A program made the position numbers and the translations under genes. The notes beneath the pieces were generated by a model that saw only the letters and a list, made by a program, of their open reading frames with translations, was not told the origin of the DNA and did no database searches. Shown here piece by piece: positions 2,218 to 20,000 of a stretch of DNA of 20,000 bases; position 1 is the stretch's first letter; every line of letters starts with the position of its first letter. Where the stretch lies: the IMG/VR virus record IMGVR_UViG_3300010158_000057; one strand, written 5' to 3'. Origin of the DNA: an uncultured virus (IMG/VR IMGVR_UViG_3300010158_000057). Taxonomy: Duplodnaviria; Heunggongvirae; Uroviricota; Caudoviricetes.

Positions 2218-2248
2218 GGGGATAGTCGTAATTGGCTGTCCCTTTTTT
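2218..2248 (+). terminator. Rho-independent terminator
   Basis: GGGATAGTC-GTAATT-GGCTGTCCC stem (with G-U pairs) followed by TTTTTT, between convergent genes. Confidence 0.75.
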
Positions 2249-2606: not shown

Positions 2607-2623
2607 AAATATTCCTATTTAAA

Positions 2624-4276: not shown

Positions 4277-4289
4277 AATTGTCTCCTAA

Positions 4290-5793: not shown

Positions 5794-5843
5794 AGACTCT
5801 CCTTATGAGAAGTTGTATCTTATTAAGATATACCCCAAAACTA

Positions 5844-6677: not shown

Positions 6678-6767
6678 AATTATGGTTTCTCCTACTTATG
6701 GTAAATAATAGCTAATAAAATATACACTATATCATAAGATAAAAACATGTGTTCTTAAAAAGAAGAT

Positions 6768-6796
6768 TTGACTATTGAGGCCTGACGCGTTAGAAT
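6768..6796 (+). promoter_or_regulatory. Sigma-70-type promoter for the 6831/glmS unit
   Basis: TTGACT-17-TAGAAT. Confidence 0.6.
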
Positions 6797-6830
6797 AAAA
6801 GTGTCTTATGTCCCGAACCTGGAGAAAATT

Positions 6831-7142
6831 ATGAAAACTCTACTATGCTCTTTAACGTTGTTGCTTATGCTGGGAAACTTAGCCTCTGCTCAATATCCGG
6901 TAGTTACTCAAGCATGGGTTCCTATGGTGGTTAATACAACCCAATATGTTCCTTACAATTATGCTGTAACTAATTACTATACTACTATGGTTCCGGTAAA
7001 TGTTCCAAATGTTCAGTATTATCAAGCTCCGTTATATCGACCAATATCTGAGGTGACCCCGTATGCTCAAACCTACTTTCCGTCATGTTACTGGAATAGG
7101 CCGGTTTATTATAACTATCGACAGTATCCTTATCGGTACTAA
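6831..7142 (+). CDS. Secreted Tyr/Pro/Val-rich small protein
   Basis: GGAGA RBS before ATG 6831. Signal-peptide-like MKTLLCSLTLLLMLGNLASA, then a Y/P/V-rich mature part. Confidence 0.7.
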   Translation: MKTLLCSLTLLLMLGNLASAQYPVVTQAWVPMVVNTTQYVPYNYAVTNYYTTMVPVNVPNVQYYQAPLYRPISEVTPYAQTYFPSCYWNRPVYYNYRQYPYRY

Positions 7143-7148
7143 AAAACT

Positions 7149-8960: not shown

Positions 8961-9074
8961 TATAAAGTGGCTATTAAACCGGCCAATTATTATATGGGGG
9001 TCCTTATTGTTTATGTACCACCCCCGGATTGTCTCGCAATTTTCTGGGGTCCTTAATAAAACAGAAAAACCCCC

Positions 9075-9152
9075 CAAGTATATGGCAGATAAGGACTTAT
9101 GTCTCATTTTGCGGGCCGCGTTTGATGTAAGTCTTTTGGTCCCAAGGGTTTA
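9075..9152. repeat. 78-bp double-palindrome element, copy 1
   Basis: CAAGTATAT-N7-AAGGACTTA / 28 bp / TAAGTCTTT-N7-AAGGGTTTA. Confidence 0.85.
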
Positions 9153-9197
9153 GAACGAAAACCGCGAACCTTACGGAAATGTAAGGAAACTTTCCAC

Positions 9198-9225
9198 TTG
9201 CAAACTACAGAATACTCTGTATAAT
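9198..9225 (+). promoter_or_regulatory. Sigma-70-type promoter
   Basis: TTGCAA-16-TATAAT, preceded by the CCTTAC-N6-GTAAGG palindrome at 9169-9186. Confidence 0.6.
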
Positions 9226-9253
9226 GTCGATATAAGAACAAGAGGACAAGAAA

Positions 9254-9496
9254 ATGATCACCATCAACAATCGCGACGAACTGAACAACCTCCTCTATGG
9301 TGCTGATTCGACCAGCCCCGAAACCTTGGTTGGAATTGCTCGTATTGGCGGTGAGTTGCTCATCGAGGCTTTCCACTACTACGAACTGAGCGACGGGACC
9401 GCTTCCATCGGAGATTTCTTTCCCTGCGGCGATGAGGGCGAGGGAATTAATGTTGATCGTGACGGAAACATTCTTAGCGATTTTCTTTACTACTAA
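9254..9496 (+). CDS. Small acidic hypothetical protein
   Basis: 80 aa, GAGGA RBS, follows a promoter. Confidence 0.75.
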   Translation: MITINNRDELNNLLYGADSTSPETLVGIARIGGELLIEAFHYYELSDGTASIGDFFPCGDEGEGINVDRDGNILSDFLYY

Positions 9497-9500
9497 GGTA

Positions 9501-9530
9501 TTGACAGCCGTCTAGCCGATAAGCTATAAT
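9501..9530 (+). promoter_or_regulatory. Sigma-70-type promoter
   Basis: TTGACA-18-TATAAT. Confidence 0.75.
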
Positions 9531-9567
9531 AGAGACACAAGAGAACGATAGGATAAAGGAAAAGAAA

Positions 9568-9735
9568 ATGACTTATTTCATTCAGGTTTTCGACGCTTGG
9601 GATTGTGAAATCGACTTCATCGGCCCGTTCAATACTGAAAACGAAGCGTATGAAGCCGGTTGGAGCAAATGGGAGGGCGATGAAACTGCCTATGGTAGCC
9701 GAATCATCAAAAGGCTTCCGGCTTCCTCTCACTAA
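9568..9735 (+). CDS. Small hypothetical protein (55 aa, not in ORF track)
   Basis: MTYFIQVFDAWDCEIDFIGPFNTENEAYEAGW..., AAGGA RBS, sits between two promoters. Confidence 0.7.
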   Translation: MTYFIQVFDAWDCEIDFIGPFNTENEAYEAGWSKWEGDETAYGSRIIKRLPASSH

Positions 9736-9753
9736 AAAATATTTTCTAAGGTA

Positions 9754-9783
9754 TTGACAACCACCTAGTCTATACTGTATAAT
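9754..9783 (+). promoter_or_regulatory. Sigma-70-type promoter
   Basis: TTGACA-18-TATAAT. Confidence 0.7.
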
Positions 9784-9810
9784 AGAAAAACAAGAAAGAA
9801 AAGGAAAAAC

Positions 9811-10026
9811 ATGTTTGCAACAGCCTATAAGCCGGTAACGAATAACCTTGACAAGATTTTCTCTGCTATGCGAGCTGGCAAGTATCACTGCGTGCTCGAC
9901 CCCAAGGGTAACGCTCATGTGGGCCTTATCAACGGTATCATGCGTGAGGATGGTAGCGGAAAAAACTGGATCGTAACTATCAATAGCAGACTGAGAAGTG
10001 AACAAGTGTTCATTCACGCCTCTTGA
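9811..10026 (+). CDS. Small hypothetical protein
   Basis: 71 aa, AAGGA RBS, stop codon 2 nt before element copy 2. Confidence 0.75.
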   Translation: MFATAYKPVTNNLDKIFSAMRAGKYHCVLDPKGNAHVGLINGIMREDGSGKNWIVTINSRLRSEQVFIHAS

Positions 10027-10028
10027 CG

Positions 10029-10106
10029 CAAAGCCTTGCCCTATAAGGACTTAGGGCGAGCGTGGCGGGCCGAACTCTATGTAAGTGCTTATTCCATATA
10101 GACTTA
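10029..10106. repeat. 78-bp double-palindrome element, copy 2
   Basis: CAAAGCCTT-N7-AAGGACTTA / 28 bp / TAAGTGCTT-N7-ATAGACTTA. Confidence 0.9.
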
Positions 10107-10152
10107 GAGAAAGCTTACGGTATTGTAAGGAAGTTTTTCTTGCTGCTAGGGG

Positions 10153-10181
10153 TTGACATTGGTCGATAATAGATGTAGAAT
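10153..10181 (+). promoter_or_regulatory. Sigma-70-type promoter
   Basis: TTGACA-17-TAGAAT with CGATAATAG in the spacer. Confidence 0.8.
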
Positions 10182-10206
10182 AACAACACAAGAAAGAGAG
10201 ATCCTA

Positions 10207-10338
10207 ATGCTGACGATTATCGACTATGTTCAACTGTTTGCCTTGATTGCTGGTTGTGCTTTCATTACCTATACCGTGCATGAGGTGGGTAATGCTATCC
10301 ATTCCATGCTCCACGACTACGACGACTACAACTATTGA
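10207..10338 (+). CDS. Small membrane protein (43 aa)
   Basis: Start moved downstream of the promoter to ATG 10207; one hydrophobic segment. Confidence 0.6.
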   Translation: MLTIIDYVQLFALIAGCAFITYTVHEVGNAIHSMLHDYDDYNY

Positions 10339-10349
10339 AAGGTTCTCGC

Positions 10350-10667
10350 ATGACACACAGTGAAGCAGTGAAGATGGTTCGTGGTAAGACTAATAAGGAT
10401 ACTCGCAAGGTTGGCAACAATACCTATGCGGAAATTCTTCCTGATGGTAGCGTAGGGATCATGCTGCATAGTACCTATGTGGTAAAGATTCATCCCGACA
10501 ATAGTGCTACCCTCAATAGTGGGGGTTGGCATACGAGTACCACTAAGGATAGAATCAATCAGTATTCGCCCGTGCGTGTGTATCAACGCAAGGGACAATG
10601 GTATCTGGAATGTGGCCTAGAGTATGAAGATGGTATGGTTGTGGCCGATATGAACCTTATTTACTAA
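10350..10667 (+). CDS. Hypothetical phage protein
   Basis: 105 aa from ATG 10350 (AAAGG RBS), containing LNSGGWHTSTTKDRIN. Confidence 0.75.
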   Translation: MTHSEAVKMVRGKTNKDTRKVGNNTYAEILPDGSVGIMLHSTYVVKIHPDNSATLNSGGWHTSTTKDRINQYSPVRVYQRKGQWYLECGLEYEDGMVVADMNLIY

Positions 10668-10678
10668 GAAAGAAAAAA

Positions 10679-10903
10679 ATGAACGTTTTTACCTTTACGA
10701 TGTTGTGGAGCGTTTCGATTTGTTTGCTTGTTGTCGTAATGCAGGCTATCGGCTTGGGACATCCTAACTGTGAGCCTACTACTGTAGGATATGCTGAATT
10801 CTATGCTACACTGTTCGGATGTTCAGTACTCAGCTGTACACTAGGCATTGGTTGCTTGGCATTGCTGGTTTTTGCGAATCGCAGGATAAATAAGCAACAC
10901 TGA
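10679..10903 (+). CDS. Small two-TM membrane protein
   Basis: 74 aa with two hydrophobic stretches; stop 3 nt before element copy 3. Confidence 0.6.
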   Translation: MNVFTFTMLWSVSICLLVVVMQAIGLGHPNCEPTTVGYAEFYATLFGCSVLSCTLGIGCLALLVFANRRINKQH

Positions 10904-10906
10904 ACG

Positions 10907-10984
10907 TAAGTCCTTGTCCCTAAACGACTTAGGGCAAGGCGGGCGGGCCGGGCGCGACGTAAGTGCTTACCCAGTAAGACTTTA
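10907..10984. repeat. 78-bp double-palindrome element, copy 3
   Basis: TAAGTCCTT-N7-AACGACTTA / 28 bp / TAAGTGCTT-N7-AAGACTTTA. Confidence 0.9.
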
Positions 10985-10992
10985 CGACGACT

Positions 10993-11010
10993 TAGCAAAT
11001 GGTATGCCAA
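10993..11010 (-). promoter_or_regulatory. Sigma-54 (-24/-12)-type promoter, antisense
   Basis: Minus strand TTGGCATACCATTTGCTA: GG-N10-GC matching TGGCAC-N5-TTGC. Confidence 0.55.
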
Positions 11011-11073
11011 TGAGAAAGAAAATGACGAAAAGTTTTGTCAAATTCTCTTGACATAAAAATATCCGGATTTCTC

Positions 11074-11103
11074 TTGAACCTTTTCCTATTCATAGCGTAT
11101 AAT
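11074..11103 (+). promoter_or_regulatory. Sigma-70-type promoter
   Basis: TTGAAC-18-TATAAT. Confidence 0.55.
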
Positions 11104-11138
11104 AGATAGAGAAGAAAGAAAAAGAAAGAGGAAAGAAA

Positions 11139-11315
11139 ATGAGTTATTCTGACACACGGTATGATTATGATGATTTCGATGATGTTCGTAAGAATTCTGA
11201 TGATGGATATGATGCGTTAAAGGATAATTGGGAAGTTGGTGATGAACCTATGAATAGTAGGCAACGTCGTGAAAACGAATCATTGAACGAAACCTATCGT
11301 CAAAATGGATGGTGA
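11139..11315 (+). CDS. Small acidic hypothetical protein (58 aa, not in ORF track)
   Basis: MSYSDTRYDYDDFDDVRKNSDDGYD..., GAGGA RBS. Confidence 0.65.
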   Translation: MSYSDTRYDYDDFDDVRKNSDDGYDALKDNWEVGDEPMNSRQRRENESLNETYRQNGW

Positions 11316-11334
11316 GCCTTACGACATTGTAAGG

Positions 11335-11363
11335 TTGACAACATAAAATCATTTTGGTATAAT
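11335..11363 (+). promoter_or_regulatory. Sigma-70-type promoter
   Basis: TTGACA-17-TATAAT (perfect consensus), abutting CCTTAC-N6-GTAAGG at 11317-11334. Confidence 0.85.
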
Positions 11364-11388
11364 GAACACACAAGAAAGAGAGAAAAGA

Positions 11389-11598
11389 ATGTACGAAATT
11401 GGTGATAGTGTGATGCTCAAGGGATTCGAGAAACAGATTGTTGGAAAGATTGTTTCCTACTACTATGATGAGGGCAATGTGTGGGTAGTGCGTACAGAAG
11501 GTGGAAATCTCCATGACTGTGCAGACCATGAGCTTTCGCCCGCAGTGGATGCCTACGGACACCCCTGGACTTATCGACCCACCCATAGTGGGGGTTGA
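11389..11598 (+). CDS. Small SH3/KOW-like beta-barrel protein
   Basis: MYEIGDSVMLKG...VGKIV...WVVRT pattern; start moved downstream of the promoter. Confidence 0.65.
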   Translation: MYEIGDSVMLKGFEKQIVGKIVSYYYDEGNVWVVRTEGGNLHDCADHELSPAVDAYGHPWTYRPTHSGG

Positions 11599-11623
11599 TA
11601 GGCAAAAGAATTGTTGATAGAAT
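11595..11623 (+). promoter_or_regulatory. Sigma-70-type promoter
   Basis: TTGATA-17-TAGAAT. Confidence 0.65.
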
Positions 11624-11664
11624 CCACACACAAGAGAACGATAGACCCTAAGAGAGAAAAGACA

Positions 11665-12039
11665 ATGAAAACCAAGTTCCCCATCATCGAAAATGCCAAG
11701 CGTCAAGCCCGTGCGATCTTCAAGGGTATCGCGATTCCCGTTCGCCACGAAGTAGCCGATGAGCAGTTTATCATCGACGTTGACTACGTTCACGGTGTGA
11801 CTGACCACAAGCGTTACGTTGTGACCGAAAAGGTTCTCAAGTTCAATCGTACTGCCTTGAAGAATATCGGCAAGACTCGCAAGGAAAAGGCCGACCCCCG
11901 CTATGTGGGGGGACAGGATACCATGATCGTTCCGGTTGGCAAGCCGGGTTCGCGTGAGCGTATCGAGGAACTAACCAAGCAGTATGGGGCGGTTGCTCAT
12001 CTGGAAATCAGCCCGTTCAGCTTCAAGGGGGAAGAATGA
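11665..12039 (+). CDS. Basic hypothetical protein
   Basis: 124 aa from ATG 11665 after a purine-rich leader. Confidence 0.75.
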   Translation: MKTKFPIIENAKRQARAIFKGIAIPVRHEVADEQFIIDVDYVHGVTDHKRYVVTEKVLKFNRTALKNIGKTRKEKADPRYVGGQDTMIVPVGKPGSRERIEELTKQYGAVAHLEISPFSFKGEE

Positions 12040-12176
12040 ACGACTGTACACTAGTATACGACGTTACACTAGAGGCTGAGCGTTATGTAAAGAGTAAGTA
12101 TGTACAGCTGTACCCTAAGCTCTACCTCCCCGTTTGGGTGGGTACTGAACGGATATACAGGAAAAGAAAAACTTGA
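12036..12176 (+). CDS. Small hypothetical protein (46 aa, not in ORF track)
   Basis: ATGA overlap with the previous gene; stop 2 nt before element copy 4. Confidence 0.5.
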   Translation: MNDCTLVYDVTLEAERYVKSKYVQLYPKLYLPVWVGTERIYRKRKT

Positions 12177-12178
12177 CG

Positions 12179-12256
12179 TAAAGCCTTGCTGCTAAAGGAC
12201 TTAGGGCAAGGCGGGCCGGCCCCGCTTGACGTAAGTGCTTATTCCACAACGACTTA
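12179..12256. repeat. 78-bp double-palindrome element, copy 4
   Basis: TAAAGCCTT-N7-AAGGACTTA / 28 bp with central GGCCGGCC / TAAGTGCTT-N7-AACGACTTA. Confidence 0.9.
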
Positions 12257-12264
12257 CGACACCA

Positions 12265-12282
12265 TAGCAAATGCTGTACCAA
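12265..12282 (-). promoter_or_regulatory. Sigma-54 (-24/-12)-type promoter, antisense
   Basis: Minus strand TTGGTACAGCATTTGCTA: GG-N10-GC. Confidence 0.55.
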
Positions 12283-12337
12283 ATCATGTTAGAAATACCT
12301 TACAGCATTGCAAGGAAACTTTTTCTGGTCTACCCTA

Positions 12338-12366
12338 TTGACAAATGACGATAATAGATGTATAAT
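12338..12366 (+). promoter_or_regulatory. Sigma-70-type promoter
   Basis: TTGACA-17-TATAAT (perfect consensus) with CGATAATAG in the spacer. Confidence 0.85.
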
Positions 12367-12388
12367 GGTAAGACAAGAAAGAGAGAAA

Positions 12389-12613
12389 ATGAAAATGAGA
12401 AAGCCTCCGAAAGTTTCGACCGTCAAGGGTAAGATCAATGGGTATGCCTACAAGTGTGGGTTTACGTTTCATCCGAAAGAGGATGGAACGTTTGCTCTGT
12501 TCGACATTCACATGGGATACTACGTTTGTCGTGGTACTCATGATCGTGTTGTCCAGTTCGTGATGAATGAACTGTGGGCGAAGTATTATCGGTCGCAACC
12601 TACCCCCGCATAA
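12389..12613 (+). CDS. Small hypothetical protein
   Basis: 74 aa from ATG 12389, downstream of the promoter. Confidence 0.7.
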   Translation: MKMRKPPKVSTVKGKINGYAYKCGFTFHPKEDGTFALFDIHMGYYVCRGTHDRVVQFVMNELWAKYYRSQPTPA

Positions 12614-12619
12614 GAGGGG

Positions 12620-12648
12620 TTGACGACGGCAGAAAAGTTCGATAGAAT
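12620..12648 (+). promoter_or_regulatory. Sigma-70-type promoter
   Basis: TTGACG-17-TAGAAT. Confidence 0.7.
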
Positions 12649-12666
12649 ACTCAAAAGAGGAAAAAG

Positions 12667-12843
12667 ATGCAAAAGATTATGGTTGGCGATGTGGTTCAGG
12701 TGGTTGACGGGTATGGTATTGTCCAGCAAATTATCGGAAAGAATCTGAAGATTCGGCTTTCTGGCCGATACGGTGATGGTGAATGGTATACGCTTGATCA
12801 GATAGTGTGCCATGCTGCTCTGAGCAGAAATAAAGGAAATTGA
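12667..12843 (+). CDS. Small SH3/KOW-like protein (58 aa, not in ORF track)
   Basis: MQKIMVGDVVQVVDGYGIVQQIIGKNLKIRL..., GAGGA RBS. Confidence 0.65.
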   Translation: MQKIMVGDVVQVVDGYGIVQQIIGKNLKIRLSGRYGDGEWYTLDQIVCHAALSRNKGN

Positions 12844-12852
12844 GAGTCTCAG

Positions 12853-12899
12853 CTAACCCTACGGGTTTGGGTGGTTTGGATATAGTCAGCATAGTCAGC
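12853..12899 (+). repeat. Second repeat family, copy 1 (hairpin + tandem ATAGTCAG)
   Basis: CTAACCCTACGGGTTTGGG...ATAGTCAGCATAGTCAGC, matches 16892-16939. Confidence 0.7.
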
Positions 12900-12921
12900 G
12901 GAACCTGTGGGTCTTGTAAGG

Positions 12922-12950
12922 TTGACAACTAAAGTTTTGCAGTGTAGAAT
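12922..12950 (+). promoter_or_regulatory. Sigma-70-type promoter
   Basis: TTGACA-17-TAGAAT followed by GTCGATAATAG. Confidence 0.8.
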
Positions 12951-12996
12951 GTCGATAATAGGTATAGAGAAGATGACCAGTAACCAAGAGGAATGT

Positions 12997-13194
12997 ATGA
13001 TGGACTATATTAAGCGGTATGATTGGGTCGAGTTTGATTATAAGGGTGAGAATTACCGTGGTGAAGTTCGTAGGGTTCTTGACAAGCCCAAGGGTAAGAT
13101 GATGATTGTGAAAATTGGTCTGACCGAATATCGTTCGTGCTATCTTGACCAGTGTGAGAATATGACCCATGTTGCCAACACTGTGGAGGCTTGA
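12997..13194 (+). CDS. Small protein, possibly WYL/Sm-like fold
   Basis: WVEFDYKGENYRGEV...EYRSCYLDQC; GAGGA RBS before ATG 12997. Confidence 0.65.
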   Translation: MMDYIKRYDWVEFDYKGENYRGEVRRVLDKPKGKMMIVKIGLTEYRSCYLDQCENMTHVANTVEA

Positions 13195-13196
13195 CT

Positions 13197-13370
13197 ATGA
13201 GAATGATTGAATATCCTTTTGTGTGGGTTATGGGGGCTTTCCTTAAAGTTATGGAAACTTTCTGTGAAGTCTGGCAGAGAATCAACGAGTATGAGAATAT
13301 GAAGTCTAGGGGTTATACTCTTATGAAGAATGATGAGGGTGATGATTTCTGGGTAGGATACGGGGATTGA
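13197..13370 (+). CDS. Small hypothetical protein (57 aa, not in ORF track)
   Basis: GGAGG RBS; MRMIEYPFVWVMGAFLKVMETF... Confidence 0.65.
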   Translation: MRMIEYPFVWVMGAFLKVMETFCEVWQRINEYENMKSRGYTLMKNDEGDDFWVGYGD

Positions 13371-13398
13371 CCACTTAAACCAAAATGGAGATACAGGG

Positions 13399-13509
13399 AT
13401 GTATCAATTTGATTTTATTAGTGTGGCTTTTGGGTATATTGTTGGTATTATTCTGTATGCTAGTATGTCAAATATCATGTATATGGAGGAAAATGATGAA
13501 AATCAGTGA
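13399..13509 (+). CDS. Small membrane protein (36 aa)
   Basis: GGAGA RBS; MYQFDFISVAFGYIVGIILYASM... Confidence 0.5.
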   Translation: MYQFDFISVAFGYIVGIILYASMSNIMYMEENDENQ

Positions 13510-13573
13510 TTATATTCTATTTGGGTTGTGTTTCATTCTAGGATGTGGCTTGACGTATCTCCTTCATCTGTAA
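13493..13573 (+). CDS. Very small membrane peptide (26 aa)
   Basis: GGAGG RBS at 13485; stop TAA lies inside element copy 5. Confidence 0.45.
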   Translation: MMKISDYILFGLCFILGCGLTYLLHL

Positions 13574-13633
13574 GGACTTACGTCGAGCGCGGCCCGCCCC
13601 GCGAAGCGTAAGTGCTTATGCTGCAACACTTTA
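13556..13633. repeat. 78-bp double-palindrome element, copy 5 (spacer reversed)
   Basis: TATCTCCTT-N7-AAGGACTTA / 28 bp / TAAGTGCTT-N7-AACACTTTA. Confidence 0.9.
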
Positions 13634-13677
13634 CAACAACCTTACGAGATTGCAAGGAAAAACTTTTACGCTAGGGC

Positions 13678-13706
13678 TTGCAATGGGTCGATAATAAGTG
13701 TAGAAT
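13678..13706 (+). promoter_or_regulatory. Sigma-70-type promoter
   Basis: TTGCAA-17-TAGAAT with CGATAAT in the spacer. Confidence 0.7.
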
Positions 13707-13743
13707 ACCAGCATCACGAACGGAAACCACAGGAACCAGAATC

Positions 13744-13917
13744 ATGCTGAACTTCGACGAGATCAACGATATTCTGAACGATATGGCCGAAGCGGGTATT
13801 GTCGAGCCGATGGTCGAGCCAATTGACGATCCCAGTGTGGAAGTCAACTTTTGGGATTGGGCCGACGTTGTGGGTGCTGTTGACGAATTTGTTCCCGAGG
13901 AGTATACTAATGCTTAG
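13744..13917 (+). CDS. Highly acidic small protein (57 aa)
   Basis: AGGA RBS; 16 D/E and no K/R. Confidence 0.7.
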   Translation: MLNFDEINDILNDMAEAGIVEPMVEPIDDPSVEVNFWDWADVVGAVDEFVPEEYTNA

Positions 13918-13981
13918 TGCAATTGCTTTTGTTGTGGGTTATATCGGTTTGTTTTACATTACTACCATCGTGAGGGACTGA
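13910..13981 (+). CDS. Very small membrane peptide (23 aa)
   Basis: GAGGAG RBS; MLSAIAFVVGYIGLFYITTIVRD; fills the gap between neighbours. Confidence 0.5.
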   Translation: MLSAIAFVVGYIGLFYITTIVRD

Positions 13982-13983
13982 TC

Positions 13984-14217
13984 ATGAGCTACGAATACGA
14001 CGATTTCGAGGAAGATGATACCGTTGGAGAATTTGAGAATGATTCGTTTGATGATAGTATGGATGGTGATGCTGAGTCTGCGTTGGCTTCCGCTGGATGG
14101 GGAACCGATGAGGATTACGGTTGCTATGGGGAAGATTTAGACTATCAGGAAGATTTCCATGCCGATGAGGCTGTGGGATTTGTGGATTACAATGAAGATG
14201 GGCCATATAACGACTAA
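13984..14217 (+). CDS. Extremely acidic small protein
   Basis: 77 aa, about 29 D/E and no K/R; GAGGG RBS. Confidence 0.75.
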   Translation: MSYEYDDFEEDDTVGEFENDSFDDSMDGDAESALASAGWGTDEDYGCYGEDLDYQEDFHADEAVGFVDYNEDGPYND

Positions 14218-14234
14218 TTGAAAGGAAATGTATA

Positions 14235-14633
14235 ATGCAGTATCGAAAGATTGCGACGGGTATTATCGAGGCCACATACGAAAATTATGTACAGTGGCGG
14301 GAAGATGGTGTGCTGGATGAAGAACTGAATAAGCATAATCAAGAAATTCCCGTGTGGGATGAAATGAATGAGAGTACCAAGTGTTCTGCAATAGAGTATG
14401 TTTATCTTAATAGAGATACTATTGAGTTACATTCTGGGCTTGTAGAATCATGGGTACAAGCTACGGCCTACTTTATGATCTATGATTTTGCTGCTATTCT
14501 CGCATATGACGGAAAACCAGAAATCGAAGTGTTCTTTGATGACATGGATTTTATGATCGACCAAGATATTCTGGACGACGAGGATGTTCAGCAGCAACTT
14601 GGAATTAGTCCAGATTTTGGAGGAAAATTCTAA
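14235..14633 (+). CDS. Acidic hypothetical protein
   Basis: 132 aa, AAGGA RBS; stop 10 nt before element copy 6. Confidence 0.75.
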   Translation: MQYRKIATGIIEATYENYVQWREDGVLDEELNKHNQEIPVWDEMNESTKCSAIEYVYLNRDTIELHSGLVESWVQATAYFMIYDFAAILAYDGKPEIEVFFDDMDFMIDQDILDDEDVQQQLGISPDFGGKF

Positions 14634-14643
14634 GCACTACCCC

Positions 14644-14721
14644 TAAACCCTTTGTGCATAAGCACTTAGGGCTGGCGGGGCGGGCCGCATTTGTCATAAG
14701 TCTTTATGTTGCAATGCTTTA
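14644..14721. repeat. 78-bp double-palindrome element, copy 6
   Basis: TAAACCCTT-N7-AAGCACTTA / 28 bp / TAAGTCTTT-N7-AATGCTTTA. Confidence 0.9.
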
Positions 14722-14756
14722 CGATAACCTTACAGTATTGCAAGGAAACTACCCGC

Positions 14757-14784
14757 TTGACACCTAAAGTTTCTATGCTATACT
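14757..14784 (+). promoter_or_regulatory. Sigma-70-type promoter
   Basis: TTGACA-16-TATACT with TGn extended -10, followed by GTCGATAATAG. Confidence 0.7.
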
Positions 14785-14819
14785 TGTCGATAATAGAGTA
14801 GAGAAAGAGAGAGCGAAGA

Positions 14820-14972
14820 ATGAAAAGTGAAGAAGAAAAGCGTCTTGAAGAATACAACCGATTCATGGATGAATGGGAAAAGCGTCCTAAGAATCGCGAT
14901 TTGTATGGCAATAACTGCTATCGTCCCGATGAGGTAGCATTGACCGATGAAGAGTATGAGATGTTTGGCTAG
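14820..14972 (+). CDS. Small hypothetical protein (50 aa, not in ORF track)
   Basis: MKSEEEKRLEEYNRFMDEWEKRP..., purine-rich leader. Confidence 0.6.
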   Translation: MKSEEEKRLEEYNRFMDEWEKRPKNRDLYGNNCYRPDEVALTDEEYEMFG

Positions 14973-14983
14973 GAGTATCAAAA

Positions 14984-15127
14984 ATGAAAACCAAAAAGAA
15001 GGTATTGACAGCACACGAAAAAGCTGTTATACTCATGAATCGTGAGACGAATCGTGCAGTAAGTCGTGTGAAGATGTTGGAACAGTTGTATCTTGAAACC
15101 ATGAAAGCAAAGGAACTTGTTAAATGA
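14984..15127 (+). CDS. Small basic protein (47 aa, not in ORF track)
   Basis: AGGAG RBS; ATGA overlap with the next gene. Confidence 0.6.
   Translation: MKTKKKVLTAHEKAVILMNRETNRAVSRVKMLEQLYLETMKAKELVK
15005..15033 (+). promoter_or_regulatory. Sigma-70-type promoter (intragenic)
   Basis: TTGACA-17-TATACT with TGn extended -10. Confidence 0.6.
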
Positions 15128-15354
15128 AGTGCGTTGTTACCCATACGGATACTTTTGGTGGTGAAGCTAACTATGGTTGGGTGAATCGTTATGAGTTCAT
15201 CCCTAAGAAGAATGCTAGCCAGCGTAGCGTTGTTCGTAAAGCTAAGGCTCTGGCCGGTATGACAGCGGTCAAGGCCGAGACCTATGACTATGGCGACGGC
15301 TATACAGTTAAGCCTCGCGGTTATGCTCAAATCATCTTTGTTGATTTTGAGTAA
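15124..15354 (+). CDS. Hypothetical phage protein
   Basis: 76 aa, TDTFGGEANYGWVNR, AAGGA RBS. Confidence 0.75.
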   Translation: MKCVVTHTDTFGGEANYGWVNRYEFIPKKNASQRSVVRKAKALAGMTAVKAETYDYGDGYTVKPRGYAQIIFVDFE

Positions 15355-15371
15355 AAAATAATGTCTCGTCG

Positions 15372-15449
15372 TAAACCCTTTGTGTTCAAGCACTTAGGGC
15401 CGACGGGGCGGGCCGCGTTCGACGTAAGTCCTTACTCTGCAACACTTTA
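15372..15449. repeat. 78-bp double-palindrome element, copy 7
   Basis: TAAACCCTT-N7-AAGCACTTA / 28 bp / TAAGTCCTT-N7-AACACTTTA. Confidence 0.9.
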
Positions 15450-15488
15450 CGAGAATCCTTACAATTCCGTAAGATTCAAGTTTGCCCC

Positions 15489-15517
15489 TTGATTTTGCCG
15501 ATAATATATGGTAGAAT
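15489..15517 (+). promoter_or_regulatory. Sigma-70-type promoter
   Basis: TTGATT-17-TAGAAT with CGATAAT in the spacer and TGn extension. Confidence 0.7.
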
Positions 15518-15545
15518 GACGTATACGAGAAAGAGAGAGTGAAAC

Positions 15546-15809
15546 ATGAGTCCCGATGGAAGTTACAACGGCTATCAAAACTACCAGACATGGAATGTTT
15601 GTCTGTGGATCAGTAATGATGAAAATATGTATAGTCTGGCAAAGCAGTGTACCTCTTACGATCATTTCAAGATTTTGATTCGTGAGATTTTTACCAAAGA
15701 CCCTATTCGATTCGAAACACCCGATTGTGTGGCTTGGAATGATAGTGGTATCAATATGGCAGAAATGGAAGAATACTGGGCAGAAAGTTTTTCTAAAGTT
15801 TGTGCTTGA
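15546..15809 (+). CDS. Hypothetical phage protein
   Basis: 87 aa with a YNGYQNYQTWNVCLWISNDE motif of the kind seen in small phage proteins. Confidence 0.75.
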   Translation: MSPDGSYNGYQNYQTWNVCLWISNDENMYSLAKQCTSYDHFKILIREIFTKDPIRFETPDCVAWNDSGINMAEMEEYWAESFSKVCA

Positions 15810-15834
15810 CAAACGACGATAATTAGTGTAGACT
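15806..15834 (+). promoter_or_regulatory. Sigma-70-type promoter
   Basis: TTGACA-17-TAGACT with CGATAAT in the spacer. Confidence 0.7.
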
Positions 15835-15879
15835 TGTGGCATGGATGTTGTGATCGGTTTTCAATTTGAAAGGGTTTCT

Positions 15880-16284
15880 ATGAGTGATGTGATTCTGTTT
15901 GGTTCGATTCTTGCGGCTGTTGCCGCTGCTGTTGTGGGTTTCGTCTTCTATTCGGTCTATGGTGGATCGAAGGCTAGCTTGGCGAATGCTCAAGAGGGTC
16001 AGGTTTTCAACTTTGTTTACGAGCAGCCTTTGCATGGAACGCATGAGCGTTTTCTGGCTAAGGTGATCGGCAAGCAGACGCTGACTGCTGACCAGATTAA
16101 GAGACTGAATCGAAAGAGTCGATATCGTATCAATGATCCTGAGTTTGTGCGTACTACCAATCTGGTAACGTGTCGAACTGCGGATGGTAAGGTGCGTAAT
16201 TTCTACGCAGAGCGAGTGACGAAGTGCCGAAAGCCTCTTCTGGCTGGTGCTTTGTTCAAGAGCGGGTTTGCTAACCTGTTCTAA
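15880..16284 (+). CDS. Membrane-anchored protein with WYL-like domain
   Basis: N-terminal TM (ILFGSILAAVAAAVVGFVFY), then VFNFVY...HERF...DGKVRNFYAERV, resembling the WYL 'F.Y...R...R.F..dRI' pattern. Confidence 0.65.
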   Translation: MSDVILFGSILAAVAAAVVGFVFYSVYGGSKASLANAQEGQVFNFVYEQPLHGTHERFLAKVIGKQTLTADQIKRLNRKSRYRINDPEFVRTTNLVTCRTADGKVRNFYAERVTKCRKPLLAGALFKSGFANLF

Positions 16285-16320
16285 AAACTAGCAGTCTCTG
16301 CCTACTAACTGACCAACCCC

Positions 16321-16398
16321 TAACCCTTTGACACCAAAGGACTTAGGGCGAGGTCGGCCCGCCCGGCGCGTCGTAAGTCTTTATGCCACAATACTTTA
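16321..16398. repeat. 78-bp double-palindrome element, copy 8
   Basis: TAACCCTTT-N7-AAGGACTTA / 28 bp / TAAGTCTTT-N7-AATACTTTA. Confidence 0.9.
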
Positions 16399-16429
16399 CG
16401 ACAATCTTTTATTGCTCAAGTTTTTCCTC

Positions 16430-16458
16430 TTGACAGGCCGATAATAGTAGTGTAGAAT
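16430..16458 (+). promoter_or_regulatory. Sigma-70-type promoter
   Basis: TTGACA-17-TAGAAT with CGATAATAG in the spacer. Confidence 0.8.
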
Positions 16459-16482
16459 ATGGGGAATCAAAAGGAGAAAAAG

Positions 16483-16749
16483 ATGTTTATAGATAAGCCG
16501 TATGCTCTGAGAGATGTCGTGACTCGCACTGTGGAAGGTGATATTGTTAGGTTCAGCGGCTACAGTGTTGGTGGTCGTCCGTTCTGTATCTCAACCAAAC
16601 TCAGTGATGCCAATGAGTGGCTGAATGGTGGTTTGATTCAGAATTGCTTCCCGTATCTTGGTGCTGATGATCGTGAGATTCTGAAAACAGGGCTTGATGC
16701 TCAAGATTGGGAAGAAATGTTTGCTGGCTCAGAGGAGGAAGAAGTATGA
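16483..16749 (+). CDS. Hypothetical phage protein
   Basis: 88 aa, AAGGAG RBS; GLIQNCFPYLGADDREILKTG motif. Confidence 0.75.
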   Translation: MFIDKPYALRDVVTRTVEGDIVRFSGYSVGGRPFCISTKLSDANEWLNGGLIQNCFPYLGADDREILKTGLDAQDWEEMFAGSEEEEV

Positions 16750-16895
16750 TTACCGATACATACATGGTCATGAAGGGTACTAAGATTGTAGGCTATGTTC
16801 ATGCGTACAGTTCTTATCATGCGTTGTCTATGGCTGAAAAGCTATACGGGAAGAATTTGATGCTTGAAAGAATCTCTCGTGTTTGTCCCTCCTAA
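16746..16895 (+). CDS. Small hypothetical protein (49 aa)
   Basis: GGAGG RBS and ATGA overlap. Confidence 0.65.
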   Translation: MITDTYMVMKGTKIVGYVHAYSSYHALSMAEKLYGKNLMLERISRVCPS

Positions 16896-16939
16896 CCCTA
16901 CGGGGTTGGGCTGGGTGGGCATAGTCAGCACATAGTCAG
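16892..16939 (+). repeat. Second repeat family, copy 2 (hairpin + tandem ATAGTCAG)
   Basis: CTAACCCTACGGGGTTGGG...ATAGTCAGCACATAGTCAG. Confidence 0.7.
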
Positions 16940-16942
16940 GGG

Positions 16943-16971
16943 TTGACAAAGAGTCTTTAATAGAGTATACT
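16943..16971 (+). promoter_or_regulatory. Sigma-70-type promoter
   Basis: TTGACA-17-TATACT. Confidence 0.75.
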
Positions 16972-16989
16972 TGGAGTAAGGAGAAAATT

Positions 16990-17196
16990 ATGCTGACAAG
17001 TGAAGAAAAAGGTTTGATTGCTGGTCGTGTGGCTAGTTTTGCTATGAAGATGATTATACAGGCTATTGATTATAATCCTGAGCTTATGACCGCAGAACTG
17101 GATAAGTTTCAGGCTTTTATCTGTGGTGCTCTTGAGATTGCCAAGAGGGATGGGGTGGTTAGGGTTCGTGAGTCTATTGGGGCTAGTAACAACTAA
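16990..17196 (+). CDS. Small hypothetical protein
   Basis: 68 aa, TAAGGAG RBS; stop 3 nt before element copy 9. Confidence 0.75.
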   Translation: MLTSEEKGLIAGRVASFAMKMIIQAIDYNPELMTAELDKFQAFICGALEIAKRDGVVRVRESIGASNN

Positions 17197-17199
17197 TCG

Positions 17200-17277
17200 T
17201 AAGTCCTTATCCTTAAACAACTTAGGGATAGGGCGGGCGGCCCTGCTTGACATAAGTACTTATGGTCTATAGAGTTA
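17200..17277. repeat. 78-bp double-palindrome element, copy 9
   Basis: TAAGTCCTT-N7-AACAACTTA / 28 bp / TAAGTACTT-N7-ATAGAGTTA. Confidence 0.9.
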
Positions 17278-17317
17278 CGTCAATCTAAAAATTTTTCAGA
17301 ATTTCTGTAGAGAGGGC

Positions 17318-17346
17318 TTGACAATTGACGATAATAGATGTAGAAT
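17318..17346 (+). promoter_or_regulatory. Sigma-70-type promoter of the putative ncRNA
   Basis: TTGACA-17-TAGAAT with CGATAATAG in the spacer. Confidence 0.8.
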
Positions 17347-17352
17347 ACGAGA

Positions 17353-18335
17353 GTTCGAGCCGATCATTGACAATACGACGCGGGTTGCAAGGTTGCAATG
17401 AGCAACTCCCCAATAGCTACCATGGGAGCTGGGAAGTTAAATAGGTGGTCAAGTTCATGGTTTATTCCAAAAGACGAAACCACCCACCCGCACAATACAA
17501 GCAGATGAGGGCCGCTGGCAGAATGATATCAAAGAAGCCACGGTTAAATGCAAGGCCGAGTATGGCATAACCCAATCTGATTGTGAACACCCTCGCAGCG
17601 ACGGTTAGTCGTTGTGCATAACCTAATGAAGAGGGGACGCGGGATAATAAAGATGTGACTCCCGCACAACACAAGCGAACTGAAAGAACTCGCCAAGAGA
17701 CCCAACGGTCACACTTGGGAGAGAATGAGAGAAAGGAGCTTCAGTTCCAAAGCCCGTGGGTCCATGCCTTGGACTAGGTTGGGTAACTCATTACGATAAG
17801 CACCGCATGTCGCGGCAGCGATGGTGCTGACAGTGTTGGTTACGCACTGGATAGTAATGCCAATCTATGGGGGATCGCGTCCCCACCACGTTATAATACA
17901 ATCCGGTATTATCCTTCATCGGGTAATGGAGTGAATTAACACCACGGCGCTAAAACCGTGTCTTATCTTTCATCGGGTAAGATCGCTGAACTAACAGCCG
18001 GATACCGAACAACCAGTAACCGTCGCCTCTGAGCCTCTGTGTATGTTGGAGTCATGACCCAAAGGAAGCAGCGTGGACGGTTTCCACTAAGTAATTGCCT
18101 ATTCGGGGCATTTAAATACCGAGTCTTAGGTGGATTATAGAACCGGATCGTAAATGGTTCGCTGGTTATAAACAGGGGTCGGATAGATACCACAGGGTAA
18201 CTTGTGGTTGGTAATGTGCGTGATACCGGACACTTATTGTAAAACTATCGTAGTGATAAAAACAAGCACGTCCTAGCGGCGTATGGGGTGCGATTCCCAT
18301 ATCATTGCAAGTCGATCCATTTACAACCGGTATAC
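17353..18335 (+). ncRNA. Candidate large structured non-coding RNA (about 950-980 nt; GOLLD/ROOL size class, family unassigned)
   Basis: No plus-strand ORF of 60 aa or more behind a strong promoter. More than 20 nested complementary segments found by eye, a GUAA tetraloop, duplicated hairpins and a boxA-like leader. Boundaries are approximate. Confidence 0.7.
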
Positions 18336-18353
18336 AATACTCTCCGTGAGACG

Positions 18354-18431
18354 TAAGTTCCAGTGAACAAAGGACTTGCGTCAAAACCGGCCCGCCGAAT
18401 TTGTTCTAACTCATTATACCACAAAACTTTA
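18354..18431. repeat. 78-bp double-palindrome element, copy 10
   Basis: TAAGTTCCA-N7-AAGGACTTG / 28 bp / TAACTCATT-N7-AAAACTTTA. Confidence 0.85.
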
Positions 18432-18462
18432 CGTCAAAAAGAATCTTCTAAAGAAAACTCCA

Positions 18463-18491
18463 TTGACAGGTCGATAATAGTAGTGTAGAAT
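18463..18491 (+). promoter_or_regulatory. Sigma-70-type promoter
   Basis: TTGACA-17-TAGAAT, nearly identical to the promoter at 16430. Confidence 0.8.
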
Positions 18492-18515
18492 GGCTTGACA
18501 CAAGAGGAGAATGTC

Positions 18516-18728
18516 ATGTTGAATGTCACACCAGAACTGATTGCTGAAGCAAAAGAACTTGCTAATGATAACTATGAGAGTTGGGGTCAGTATATCGTAG
18601 AATGCTATGAGGATAGTGAGTTGGCCGAAAGCCTTGAAGATTTTGACAGCCTAGACGAATGGGTTGAAGTTAGAATCTCGATAGCAAATATATACGAGGA
18701 AAGAGAAGCTTTTTATAGGTATGAATAA
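18516..18728 (+). CDS. Acidic small protein
   Basis: 70 aa, GAGGAG RBS, D/E-rich. Confidence 0.75.
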   Translation: MLNVTPELIAEAKELANDNYESWGQYIVECYEDSELAESLEDFDSLDEWVEVRISIANIYEEREAFYRYE

Positions 18729-18885
18729 AAACGAGGCGATCATTAAGATTTTGAGGGTTTTAAGGAGCCAATCGGCTGCTGTAAATAAACCCAATCGGGA
18801 AGAGGCATTGACTTTAGCAGATGAGCATGGTATAACTGCTAAGGAATTGATTGACACATGGGTAGAAATTTGTCGAAATATATAA
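18721..18885 (+). CDS. Small hypothetical protein (54 aa, not in ORF track)
   Basis: Overlaps both neighbours (8 nt, and TAATG). Confidence 0.55.
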   Translation: MNKNEAIIKILRVLRSQSAAVNKPNREEALTLADEHGITAKELIDTWVEICRNI

Positions 18886-19112
18886 TGAACTGGAATTATA
18901 ATAATCCTGTTATAAATGGATTCTATATCTGTTGTGTTAAAGATTACTCTTTTCCTTTTACTCTGTCCTGGAATAAAGAGCTTGGTGGTTGGGGTGAGTG
19001 GTGGCACGGTGAGTATGATGATGGGCCAGCAGAATGGAAACAATTTGACAATTCATTAGTGGTGTGTTATACTAGCTTTCAAGGAATTCCTATGCCAGAG
19101 GGTTGGAAATGA
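18885..19112 (+). CDS. Trp-rich small hypothetical protein
   Basis: 75 aa from the TAATG-coupled ATG 18885. Confidence 0.65.
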   Translation: MNWNYNNPVINGFYICCVKDYSFPFTLSWNKELGGWGEWWHGEYDDGPAEWKQFDNSLVVCYTSFQGIPMPEGWK

Positions 19113-19234
19113 TCTATCTAAATATTAACGAGATTGAGCGGTTGGCCGAAATTGTGGCCGAACTGGTTAAACTGAACATGTGTGTGGTTGCTGAGTTGAA
19201 GGGAACTAAGTGGAGTATTGAGGTGACTAAATGA
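19109..19234 (+). CDS. Small hypothetical protein (41 aa, not in ORF track)
   Basis: ATGA overlaps on both sides, GAGGG RBS. Confidence 0.55.
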   Translation: MIYLNINEIERLAEIVAELVKLNMCVVAELKGTKWSIEVTK

Positions 19235-19398
19235 ATGAATCACAAATATTTATTGGTGATATTGATGAATATTACTGTGACGCTGTAGATGGAAATAAGA
19301 GATGGGCAGTATGGAATAGTAATGGACTTCTTGGTAGGTTTTATACAGAGGAAGCGGCAGAGAATTTTGCTAAAGAGGTGCAAAATGGAATGGATTAG
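19231..19398 (+). CDS. Small hypothetical protein (55 aa, not in ORF track)
   Basis: GAGGTG RBS and ATGA overlap. Confidence 0.6.
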   Translation: MNESQIFIGDIDEYYCDAVDGNKRWAVWNSNGLLGRFYTEEAAENFAKEVQNGMD

Positions 19399-19648
19399 TT
19401 TCTTTGGGCCTCGCCGCCCTATTAATGGACAAAAGATCATCTATTATGGTGAGCCTATTGGTGTGTGGCGTGGAAAGTATAGGATAAACTATAATGATCC
19501 TTTTTGTATTCATAATATTGATTGTGGTGAAGCTCCCGGCAATGTTGATTATTTTGACGTTCCTTGGTGGATGCCAGATGAGGGGCAACCAAAACCACCG
19601 CCACCAGAACAACCTTACCCACCAGATTATCCAAGTCCTTGCTGCTAA
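19385..19648 (+). CDS. Small hypothetical protein (MEWIS-type N-terminus, Pro-rich tail)
   Basis: GAGGTG RBS before ATG 19385; stop TAA lies inside element copy 11. Confidence 0.65.
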   Translation: MEWISFFGPRRPINGQKIIYYGEPIGVWRGKYRINYNDPFCIHNIDCGEAPGNVDYFDVPWWMPDEGQPKPPPPEQPYPPDYPSPCC

Positions 19649-19709
19649 AAGACTTAGCTCAAGGGCGGGCGGCCGAATCTGTCGTAAGTCCTTACCTCTA
19701 AAGGATTTG
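19632..19709. repeat. 78-bp double-palindrome element, copy 11
   Basis: CAAGTCCTT-N7-AAAGACTTA / 28 bp / TAAGTCCTT-N7-AAGGATTTG. Confidence 0.9.
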
Positions 19710-19739
19710 CGTCTAGAAATAATTTTTCAAGATTCTCCC

Positions 19740-19768
19740 TTGACGATGCCGATAATAGATGGTAGACT
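19740..19768 (+). promoter_or_regulatory. Sigma-70-type promoter
   Basis: TTGACG-17-TAGACT with CGATAATAG in the spacer and TGn extension. Confidence 0.7.
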
Positions 19769-19793
19769 AAAGGCTCACAAGAGGAGGTTGATT

Positions 19794-20000
19794 ATGTATC
19801 TGGTGTTGATGGTTCAGCATGACCGAGTGGTTCATGTGAAGGCATTTCGCAGCTTTGATCTGGCCACGTTCCATGCAGACGCACTGGTGATGGATCAGAT
19901 CGGGGTCGGCAACGATATGCCCGATTGGGAAGATAGCGATTACCGTAATGTGTTTACCGCACCAAACGGTATTTCGATTATGATCGAACCGTGCGATGAG
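19794..20000 (+). CDS. Hypothetical protein, 3' truncated by the window edge
   Basis: GAGGAGG RBS; open frame MYLVLMVQHDRVVHVKAF... to the end of the window. Confidence 0.7.
   Translation, partial: MYLVLMVQHDRVVHVKAFRSFDLATFHADALVMDQIGVGNDMPDWEDSDYRNVFTAPNGISIMIEPCDE

Follow-up and report, generated by a model that had tools for sequence, protein, structure and literature searches.

The right half of a 20,000-nucleotide stretch of DNA from an uncultured virus (IMG/VR record IMGVR_UViG_3300010158_000057, Caudoviricetes; the whole stretch is hereafter called the window) carries eleven copies of a 78-bp double-palindrome element, in which two boxes, A and B, each arranged as a 9-7-9 palindrome, are separated by 28 bp. 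The element is rigid in its geometry, mirror-symmetric in its base preferences, and better conserved than the genes between its copies. It is tentatively interpreted here, with a probability somewhat short of even, as a protein-docking boundary or insulator between tandem transcription units, similar in role to the promoter-early stem-loop (PeSL) cassettes of T4-type phages but built differently. Four of its features were absent from the first-pass annotation of the window: its polarity, its tie to gene ends and promoters, a hairpin signal in box A, and its membership in a widespread family. The family is apparently undescribed, as no description of it was found in the literature searched, with subscription journals lying mostly outside that search; a text search with four 9-mers of the element returned only primers and short hairpin RNAs.

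The eleven copies, all on the + strand, lie exactly where the first-pass annotation had placed them, and none contains an indel. These are copy 1 (9075..9152, the first of the array and the most degenerate, 115 bp past a glmS-like gene), copy 2 (10029..10106), copy 3 (10907..10984), copy 4 (12179..12256), copy 5 (13556..13633), copy 6 (14644..14721), copy 7 (15372..15449), copy 8 (16321..16398), copy 9 (17200..17277), copy 10 (18354..18431, also degenerate), and copy 11 (19632..19709). The observation is confirmed by the exact starts, by an alignment free of gaps, and by motif matches in excess of shuffled expectation: a 16-base skeleton of the invariant inner part finds all 11 sites (18 matches over both strands) as against 0 in 200 shuffles, and the 9-7-9 box pattern with up to three mismatches gives 27 matches, i.e., the 22 boxes of the 11 copies and five others, compared with 2.65 +/- 1.55 in shuffled sequence. 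The copies are only about 65–70% alike; mean column identity is 69% across 106 columns, 20 of which are invariant. The geometry of boxes A and B stands as originally described, and their outer arms are more degenerate than the inner ones: the strongest conservation among the 11 copies resides in the inner arms (AAnnACTTA, 28 bp, TAAGTnnTT) together with a G...GCC centre. The octamer GGC-SS-GCC reported on the dyad axis is present in eight of the 11 copies, copies 1, 9, and 11 each being one base off. The centre of copy 4 is indeed a perfect GGCCGGCC; the central octamer occurs in either orientation, as GGCGGGCC or GGCCCGCC.

Scanning related phage contigs, one of the checks proposed in the first-pass annotation, revealed that the element recurs as a family in IMG/VR. 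With the 16-base skeleton pattern, at least 237 stretches were recovered; they are spread over about 97 contigs, which reach 244 kb in length, and yield a family set of 248 unique sites; the source of this DNA is freshwater and lake metagenomes. Scored at 75 pattern-free positions with a matrix derived from the 11 window copies alone, 234 of the 248 sites exceed every shuffled control and are taken as genuine. In five near-complete related genomes (G001–G005, 131–231 kb, CheckV completeness 95–100%), all matches with at most one mismatch fall within a single block of about 6–21 kb populated by small, mostly unknown genes, and a reversed-pattern control gave 0 matches. The block extends from 221.5 kb across the contig ends to 13.0 kb in G001 (228,972 bp, with terminal repeats), and occupies 162.8–179.4 kb in G004 (230,691 bp), 122.2–136.0 kb in G003 (223,437 bp), 0–8.3 kb in G005 (150,336 bp), and 124.4–130.9 kb in G002 (131,248 bp). 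A matrix scan detected 6–25 copies per genome inside these blocks. Elements flank the start of the array in the window and in G004, and its end in G001. A larger conserved gene (about 330 amino acids, aa) ends the arrays of three relatives (L242, part of G001, 13039–14300; L245, about 19058; L247, about 6707, on the reverse strand); it is followed by a canonical hairpin-plus-T-run terminator and, 24–26 bp further on, by the last element, after which G001 has a solitary single box.

The distribution outside such contigs is narrow. A megablast search of GenBank phages with positions 9000–20000 gave no match. Among the 121 matches listed for bacterial genomes, 116 were single and at chance level, and five were true elements on small contigs of three lake metagenome-assembled genomes (labelled Gammaproteobacteria, Alphaproteobacteria, and Flavobacteriales), where boxes occur only on six small contigs; these element-bearing contigs are probably mis-binned phage DNA. 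No true element was seen on a bacterial chromosome among the scan matches listed.

The spacing of the element is nearly invariant in the family. The arrangement ACTTA-N28-TAAGT accounts for 295 of the 323 pairs found at spacings of 10–50, a figure biased by the fixed-spacing pattern with which the loci were fetched, even though the long arrays also hold copies that the pattern had missed; the loop is N7 in 268 of 268 boxes. Exceptions are rare and comprise one clear 29-bp variant, two AT-rich 24–25 bp variants, and a few single boxes. The AT-rich variants are double elements devoid of the GC centre (L165:256, L054:1260), and single 9-7-9 boxes are found directly before promoters (L016:5756, L038:3029, L052:5134, L149:358). 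From position -5 to 84, i.e., over about 90 bp, the base preferences at position i agree with the complemented preferences at 79-i (mean r 0.79), degenerate positions included. Even the two 7-bp loops are related as mirror images (r 0.54) rather than as direct repeats (r 0.11), and clear asymmetry is confined to the position pairs 26/53, 28/51, 7/72, and 12/67. When array sites were detected with a matrix that ignores the inner half-sites (about 118 sites), the positions of these half-sites were still 81–100% conserved, each site being counted in both orientations so that the values average the two symmetric positions.

This symmetry is not accompanied by covariation. What is conserved in the arms is their sequence and not their base pairing: in the 11 window copies, 74.2% of the cells pair, compensatory change is found in 0 of 18 pairs, and 481 of 500 shuffles pair at least equally well. 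Symmetric positions vary independently of each other, with no covariation on the i+j=79 diagonal; mutual information is highest between adjacent columns, a consequence of outer-arm variants shifted in register by one base, and no strong pairing excess was found for any pair inside the element. A consensus RNA fold of the 11 copies on both strands contains only the invariant ACTTA/TAAGT and GG/CC pairs and 0 compensatory ones. Judged by z-scores from 80 sampled sites with 30 shuffles each, RNA structure is weak both in the centre (about 0, i.e., -0.1) and in box B (about -1.1 to -1.2). In a control in which chimeras combining left and right parts from different copies were folded alongside the real copies, the latter fold worse than the chimeras for box B, for the inner palindrome, and for the element as a whole. 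Rigidity, mirror symmetry, and the lack of covariation fit a double-stranded DNA site bound by a symmetric protein assembly. The earlier proposal of a platform for a tetrameric protein is thus supported in part and short of proof, as a platform on double-stranded DNA for a symmetric protein that may be a tetramer.

The array occupying the right half of the window (about 9.0–20 kb) consists of some 33 small open reading frames (ORFs) on one strand, interspersed with many consensus sigma-70-type promoters. The promoter scan of the window returned 52 promoter-like sites as compared with 20.8 +/- 4.6 in shuffles, the strong ones being nearly all on the + strand. Pfam gave no match for 29 of 32 array proteins; a search of the whole window against Rfam gave 0 matches at E <= 1, and a transfer RNA scan of the window found none. 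The element occurs about once per three genes. Each copy starts at, or a few bases from, the point where the ORF before it stops: for copies 2 and 4 the stop codon is the TGA contained in the conserved TTGACG flank (at 10026 for copy 2), and the ORFs before copies 5 and 11 extend into box A, where they end (at 13573 and 19648, respectively). Every copy has a promoter 30–89 bp downstream, and the sigma-70-type promoters detected by the scan on the + strand behind copies 1 to 11 lie at 9198..9225, 10153..10181, 11074..11103, 12338..12366, 13678..13706, 14757..14784, 15489..15517, 16430..16458, 17318..17346, 18463..18491, and 19740..19768. A similar arrangement was recorded in the context sample of 125 sites from 12 loci (eight sites of L018 repeat those of L246), where a promoter lies within 120 bp downstream of 109 of the 125 sites as against 19 of 125 in the opposite direction, the usual distance being 30–90 bp. 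The intervals between successive elements (n=108) have a median of 982 bp, 5th–95th percentiles of 632–1719 bp, and a coefficient of variation of 0.35.

The element outlasts the genes it separates. Of the 33 array genes of the window, 21 are found in G001, 20 in G004, 13 in G003, 10 in G005, and none in G002, yet G002 contains six high-scoring elements. What differs between the window, G001, and G004 is single genes, each equipped with its own promoter, and several of the variable blocks extend across an element. Homology breakpoints were taken as the 108 distinct endpoints of high-scoring segment pairs (300 bp or longer) linking the window with related loci, with locus ends excluded. Counted in this way, as endpoints that are not independent events, they are enriched in promoter zones (40 of 108 vs. 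16.1 expected, p 1.4e-8) and not in the element zone (14 of 108 vs. 10.6 expected, p 0.17). Since elements persist where genes turn over and the breakpoints lie at promoters, the element is the constant part of the array and not its preferred junction.

In the interpretation favoured here, the double-stranded element would be the docking site of a protein assembly that is symmetric and sequence-specific, in the simplest case a dimer of dimers; the docking surface would comprise two strong inner half-sites (AAnnACTTA), an outer pair that is weaker, and the GC-rich centre on the dyad. Each unit of about 1 kb, made up of small and presumably early genes, has one copy at its 3' end, just before the promoter of the next unit. 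The bound complex would then delimit the units, acting as a roadblock or terminator and as an insulator between strong tandem promoters, and the box A hairpin formed in the transcript might assist this boundary action. The analysis shows the anatomy of the element, its rigidity, its symmetry without covariation, its confinement to the array, its polarity, its placement at stop codons and promoters, and a conservation beyond that of the genes; that a protein binds at all, which protein it would be, and that it would form boundaries or terminate transcription and not regulate it are points we infer. Provided that a protein does dock, the element and its factor would constitute a new pair organizing transcription in the host-takeover region of these phages, a pair whose DNA part is conserved in some 90 or more uncultured phage contigs, with the intervening genes freely replaced. 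It would offer an annotation handle for the early regions of metagenomic jumbo phages, a ready-made insulator part for synthetic biology, and a concrete biochemical target, and would imply that PeSL-like modular architectures exist outside T4-type phages with a more elaborate boundary signal. A bolder and unlikely version holds that a clade of large uncultured aquatic phages has a dedicated boundary system that splits its first-expressed, fast-evolving block into insulated domains of about 1 kb by means of a symmetric DNA-bending or bridging complex, either phage-encoded or a hijacked host nucleoid protein, assembled on rigid 90-bp four-site platforms. If so, this would be a counterpart of chromatin insulators in bacterial viruses, with the platform conserved and the separated genes fully replaced.

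Several results weigh against the docking interpretation. The invariance of the 16 skeleton positions in the 248-site set was forced by the search pattern, and 14 of its sites are probably chance matches slightly diluting the statistics. Elements are co-oriented with the array genes in 121 of the 125 sites, a polarity that a purely symmetric DNA site would not need; the four exceptions are nearly symmetric, with score margins of at most 3.0 bits. Nor would such a site need to abut stop codons, yet in 124 of the 125 sites the end of an open frame is located from -78 to +26 relative to where the element starts; some of these stops are spurious, because frames of 35 codons or more were considered and the most downstream stop was chosen. 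The gap between element and promoter varies from 17 to 229 bp (with a mode of 30–31 bp in 36 of 119 sites), and hence there is no fixed phasing with RNA polymerase. Box A behaves differently from the rest of the element: on the + strand, real copies fold at -10.97 kcal/mol vs. about -8.1 kcal/mol for chimeras (z -2.5), and on the - strand at -10.6 vs. about -9.0 kcal/mol. Its hairpins form in three alternative registers; in each, the variable left part is paired to the conserved TTAGGGCAAGG-type flank on the right, which is also the main source of the polarity of the element. Such extra hairpin selection is seen in box A only and suggests an added role for the single strand, most simply as a transcript 3' end. 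Canonical terminators on the array gene strand number only five in 88.7 kb (a scan of the gene strand of the window's array found 0), and with so few of them some element must end the transcripts. Finally, the only binder candidate is a conserved three-helix protein of 77 aa, whose fold matches are not significant.

Many of these results would be accommodated by a function at the RNA level, which is considered rather unlikely. Here the element would be a transcribed 3' end whose hairpins, above all that of box A, terminate or protect the mRNA, and the conserved letters would reflect an RNA-binding or processing factor or else common descent. The placement at stop codons, the co-orientation with genes, the structured box A that beats chimeras in three registers, and the near-absence of canonical terminators all speak for it, and so does the termination of transcription by PeSL stem-loops of T4-type phages, shown in an earlier study (PMC2839356). 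Four lake metatranscriptome runs contain 8–11% of the sampled window words, and the contigs assembled from them are read-length pieces of depth 2–7 over gene bodies and over an ORF-less cassette. In favour of an RNA-level function, one piece (14532–14684) and a loose end of 113 letters from 10026 run from a gene end into the element, with carry-over of DNA being possible; among the 31 pieces listed of 42, none spans a whole element, a result that, given the sparse coverage and the possible carry-over, has no bearing on termination. Against an RNA-level function, neither hairpin has a U-tract behind it (T-runs are missing after both boxes, in the consensus as well as in all 11 copies), box B and the centre show hardly any structure, and compensatory pairs are missing; moreover, RNA hairpins do not require invariant loop and spacer lengths or mirror-symmetric preferences, and the centre occurs in both orientations. 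Three of the five canonical terminators lie 24–26 bp before an element, behind the same conserved array-end gene, and elements directly preceded by a terminator cannot be simply its substitutes. Somewhat less probable still is an operator for a global regulator, in which a phage or host protein seated at each element would switch the early array off or on from a distance. On plasmid RK2, KorB acts at a distance from scattered palindromic operators. The promoters within 120 bp downstream, the preferred gap of 30–31 bp, and the single boxes placed directly before promoters in relatives would suit such an operator, to which symmetry and rigidity apply equally. However, many equally strong promoters inside the cassettes lack an element, the variable gap shows no helical phasing, the element closing the G001 array precedes only a weak promoter-like site, and a ParB/KorB-type domain was found in 0 of 5 related genomes.

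Cassette exchange, in which the element would be a site of site-specific recombination (attC-like or res-like) or a homologous linker for swapping, as proposed for PeSLs, is an improbable explanation. The arrangement at the 3' end of a cassette, with a GC-rich centre flanked by two simple sites that each consist of a pair of inverted core sites, is reminiscent of attC, and the patchy gene content with persistent elements would be expected of exchange. A recombination site had been among the suggestions of the first-pass annotation, along with a search for the enzyme, and it is not supported. Pfam models found neither a tyrosine recombinase (PF00589; 0 of 5 related genomes, with the control matched in 14 of 14 and a host-encoded enzyme possible), nor a serine recombinase (0 of 5, control positive), nor a Y1 transposase/RAYT (PF01797; 0 of 5, control positive), and the breakpoints gather at promoters and not at the element. 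In addition, the variable units are single genes carrying promoters, variable blocks run across elements, and the core letters misfit the R-box consensus of attC. The least probable explanation, to which hardly any weight is given, is a selfish or neutral repeat of the miniature inverted-repeat transposable element (MITE) or repetitive extragenic palindrome (REP) kind, spread within the array and kept uniform by gene conversion. Multiple copies with terminal inverted symmetry are typical of such repeats, and REP and its composite form, the bacterial interspersed mosaic element (BIME), are likewise situated at the 3' ends of transcription units. Still, in genomes of 131–231 kb the element keeps to one block and one orientation and is always intergenic, the RAYT/Y1 transposase is missing, and bacterial chromosomes lack the element among the scan matches listed; no target-site duplication was seen by eye at the copies. 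Copies that are only about 65–70% alike, yet have near-invariant positions and almost no indels, imply selection and not homogenization.

A few narrower readings were tried and rejected. As for a promoter of a phage RNA polymerase, the T7-type polymerase model gave no match, but its control also matched nowhere; in the consensus, 16–18 bp from TTGACG reach no -10-like hexamer, copy 9 alone scoring as TTGACA-17-TAGAGT. A G-quadruplex in the G-rich left half would require four G-runs, which only some copies have, others being C-rich. CsrA-type GGA loops do not agree with the conservation of GG at positions 19–20, only 69% and 54%, next to invariant neighbours.

The candidate binder named above, the 77-aa protein (gene at 1953–2186, +), is modelled as three helices with a basic tail (mean pLDDT 78), and its best PDB fold matches, all with E > 1, are LuxR-type proteins, the GcrA DNA-binding domain, and the N-domain of the small terminase. 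Its gene and a sigma-like gene (1042–1743, -) adjoin the block in four of the five genomes. The sigma-like protein matches Sigma70_r2 (E 5e-5) and has homologues, 55–64% identical, beside the arrays of four of the five relatives; a tblastn search against GenBank phages gave no match. The adjacent 276-aa protein (251–1081, -) bears a long coiled-coil-like tail and, at its N-terminus, a helix-turn-helix-like motif in common with the 77-aa protein. The three proteins are possible transcription or DNA-binding factors of the clade. The first gene of the array, also tried as a conserved binder, was rejected because the first genes of different arrays are not homologous.

Of the systems described so far, the PeSL cassettes of T4-type phages come closest (Arbiol et al. 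2010, PMC2839356; Comeau et al. 2014, PMC4122927). PeSLs are composite units that recur between the small orphan genes of a hyperplastic block. Past the stop codon comes a structure-forming part, next an AT-rich stretch, and then a strong sigma-70-type promoter with a ribosome-binding site; each unit isolates the transcription of its cassette, and the neighbouring gene content is shuffled among relatives. The element shares with them its position in such a block of small orphan genes and the patchy gene content around it. The PeSL stem-loop is a simple G/C-rich hairpin of no fixed letters or length, whereas the present element is a rigid mirror-symmetric unit of 78–90 bp with four near-invariant half-sites and no pair covariation, in which only box A is hairpin-like. 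Recombination between PeSL units is given as the explanation of insertions and deletions among relatives, while the breakpoints in the window lie at the promoter part and not at the element. Furthermore, the element is found about once per three genes instead of at every gene. The Pfam model of the T4 capsid protein Gp23 gave no match, but neither did its control.

Other comparisons are looser. Integron attC sites, or 59-base elements, are imperfect palindromes with two inverted core-site pairs around a GC-rich middle. Like the element, they follow the gene orientation, outlast the genes, and occur once per cassette (about 0.5–1 kb), at its 3' end. The element differs from them in its core letters, in its fixed length (that of attC varies), in cassettes carrying promoters, in the absence of an integrase from the five genomes, and in breakpoints that do not fall on it, with no fixed homology break. 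An attC site is also expected to act as a paired, folded single strand, unlike the element, the halves of which as a whole fold worse than chimeras and do not covary. REP/BIME sequences of enterobacteria, including the IHF-binding RIP and RIB variants, are chromosomal, dispersed, and bound by host DNA-bending and topology proteins. They resemble the element in that they consist of short palindromes, paired as mirror images across a linker, and occur at the 3' ends of transcription units; the element, in contrast, is phage-only among the scan matches listed, confined to one array, and not accompanied by a RAYT. The half-site AA-N4-TTA partially fits the enterobacterial IHF core CAA-N4-TTR, the C of which is present in only 13% of the inner and 59% of the outer half-sites, with the invariant ACTTA being more specific than is usual for IHF sites. 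A further parallel is the injection-stop region of phage T5 (Davison 2020, 10.1101/866236), which is a single gene-free stretch, about 1.2 kb long, complex and containing DnaA boxes. It shares with the element the occurrence of conserved non-coding repeats and palindromes in the first-entering early part of a large virulent phage genome, which are better kept than the neighbouring genes and thought to bind a host protein, but the element is repeated 6–27 times between genes.

The intergenic regions of the array harbour further motifs. A small palindrome, CCTTAC-N6-GTAAGG (9169..9186, +; also at 10113, 11317, 12298, 13640, 14728, and 15457), has seven matches in the window vs. 0.60 expected; it is present in six of the 11 element–promoter gaps, and one match is not behind an element. 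Its GTAAG/CTTAC core is in common with the element arms, so the same binder may recognize both. The 17-bp spacer of the strong promoters is itself conserved and of the CGATAATAG type (10153–10181, 12338–12366, 16430–16458, 17318–17346, 18463–18491, and others), which is unusual for sigma-70 promoters and suggests that a second factor acts there. A second intergenic motif of 46 nt, located at 12846–12891 and 16885–16930 in copies that are 78% alike, includes an AACCC-TAC-GGGTT hairpin and is found after ORF ends, before promoters lacking the 78-bp element.

Between copies 9 and 10, behind the promoter 17318–17346, lies a cassette of about 1 kb (17347–18350) with no ORF longer than 37 aa and no Rfam match; copy 10 directly follows it. 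Its RNA fold has a z-score of -3.0, a 155-nt core (about 17748–17902) is 94–95% identical in several related contigs, and RNA-library contigs from the four lake runs map to 17391–17715 and 18182–18330. The cassette is hence regarded as a candidate for a large phage non-coding RNA. The left part of the window differs in composition, with a G+C content of 32–40% as against 41–47% in the array. In G004 the array begins directly after the homologue of the 77-aa gene, while the window has about 6.8 kb in between (2247–8960), made up of AT-rich genes of unknown function and the glmS-like gene (7149–8960); this segment looks like an insertion. A fragment of a GDP-mannose dehydratase gene occupies positions 1–258.

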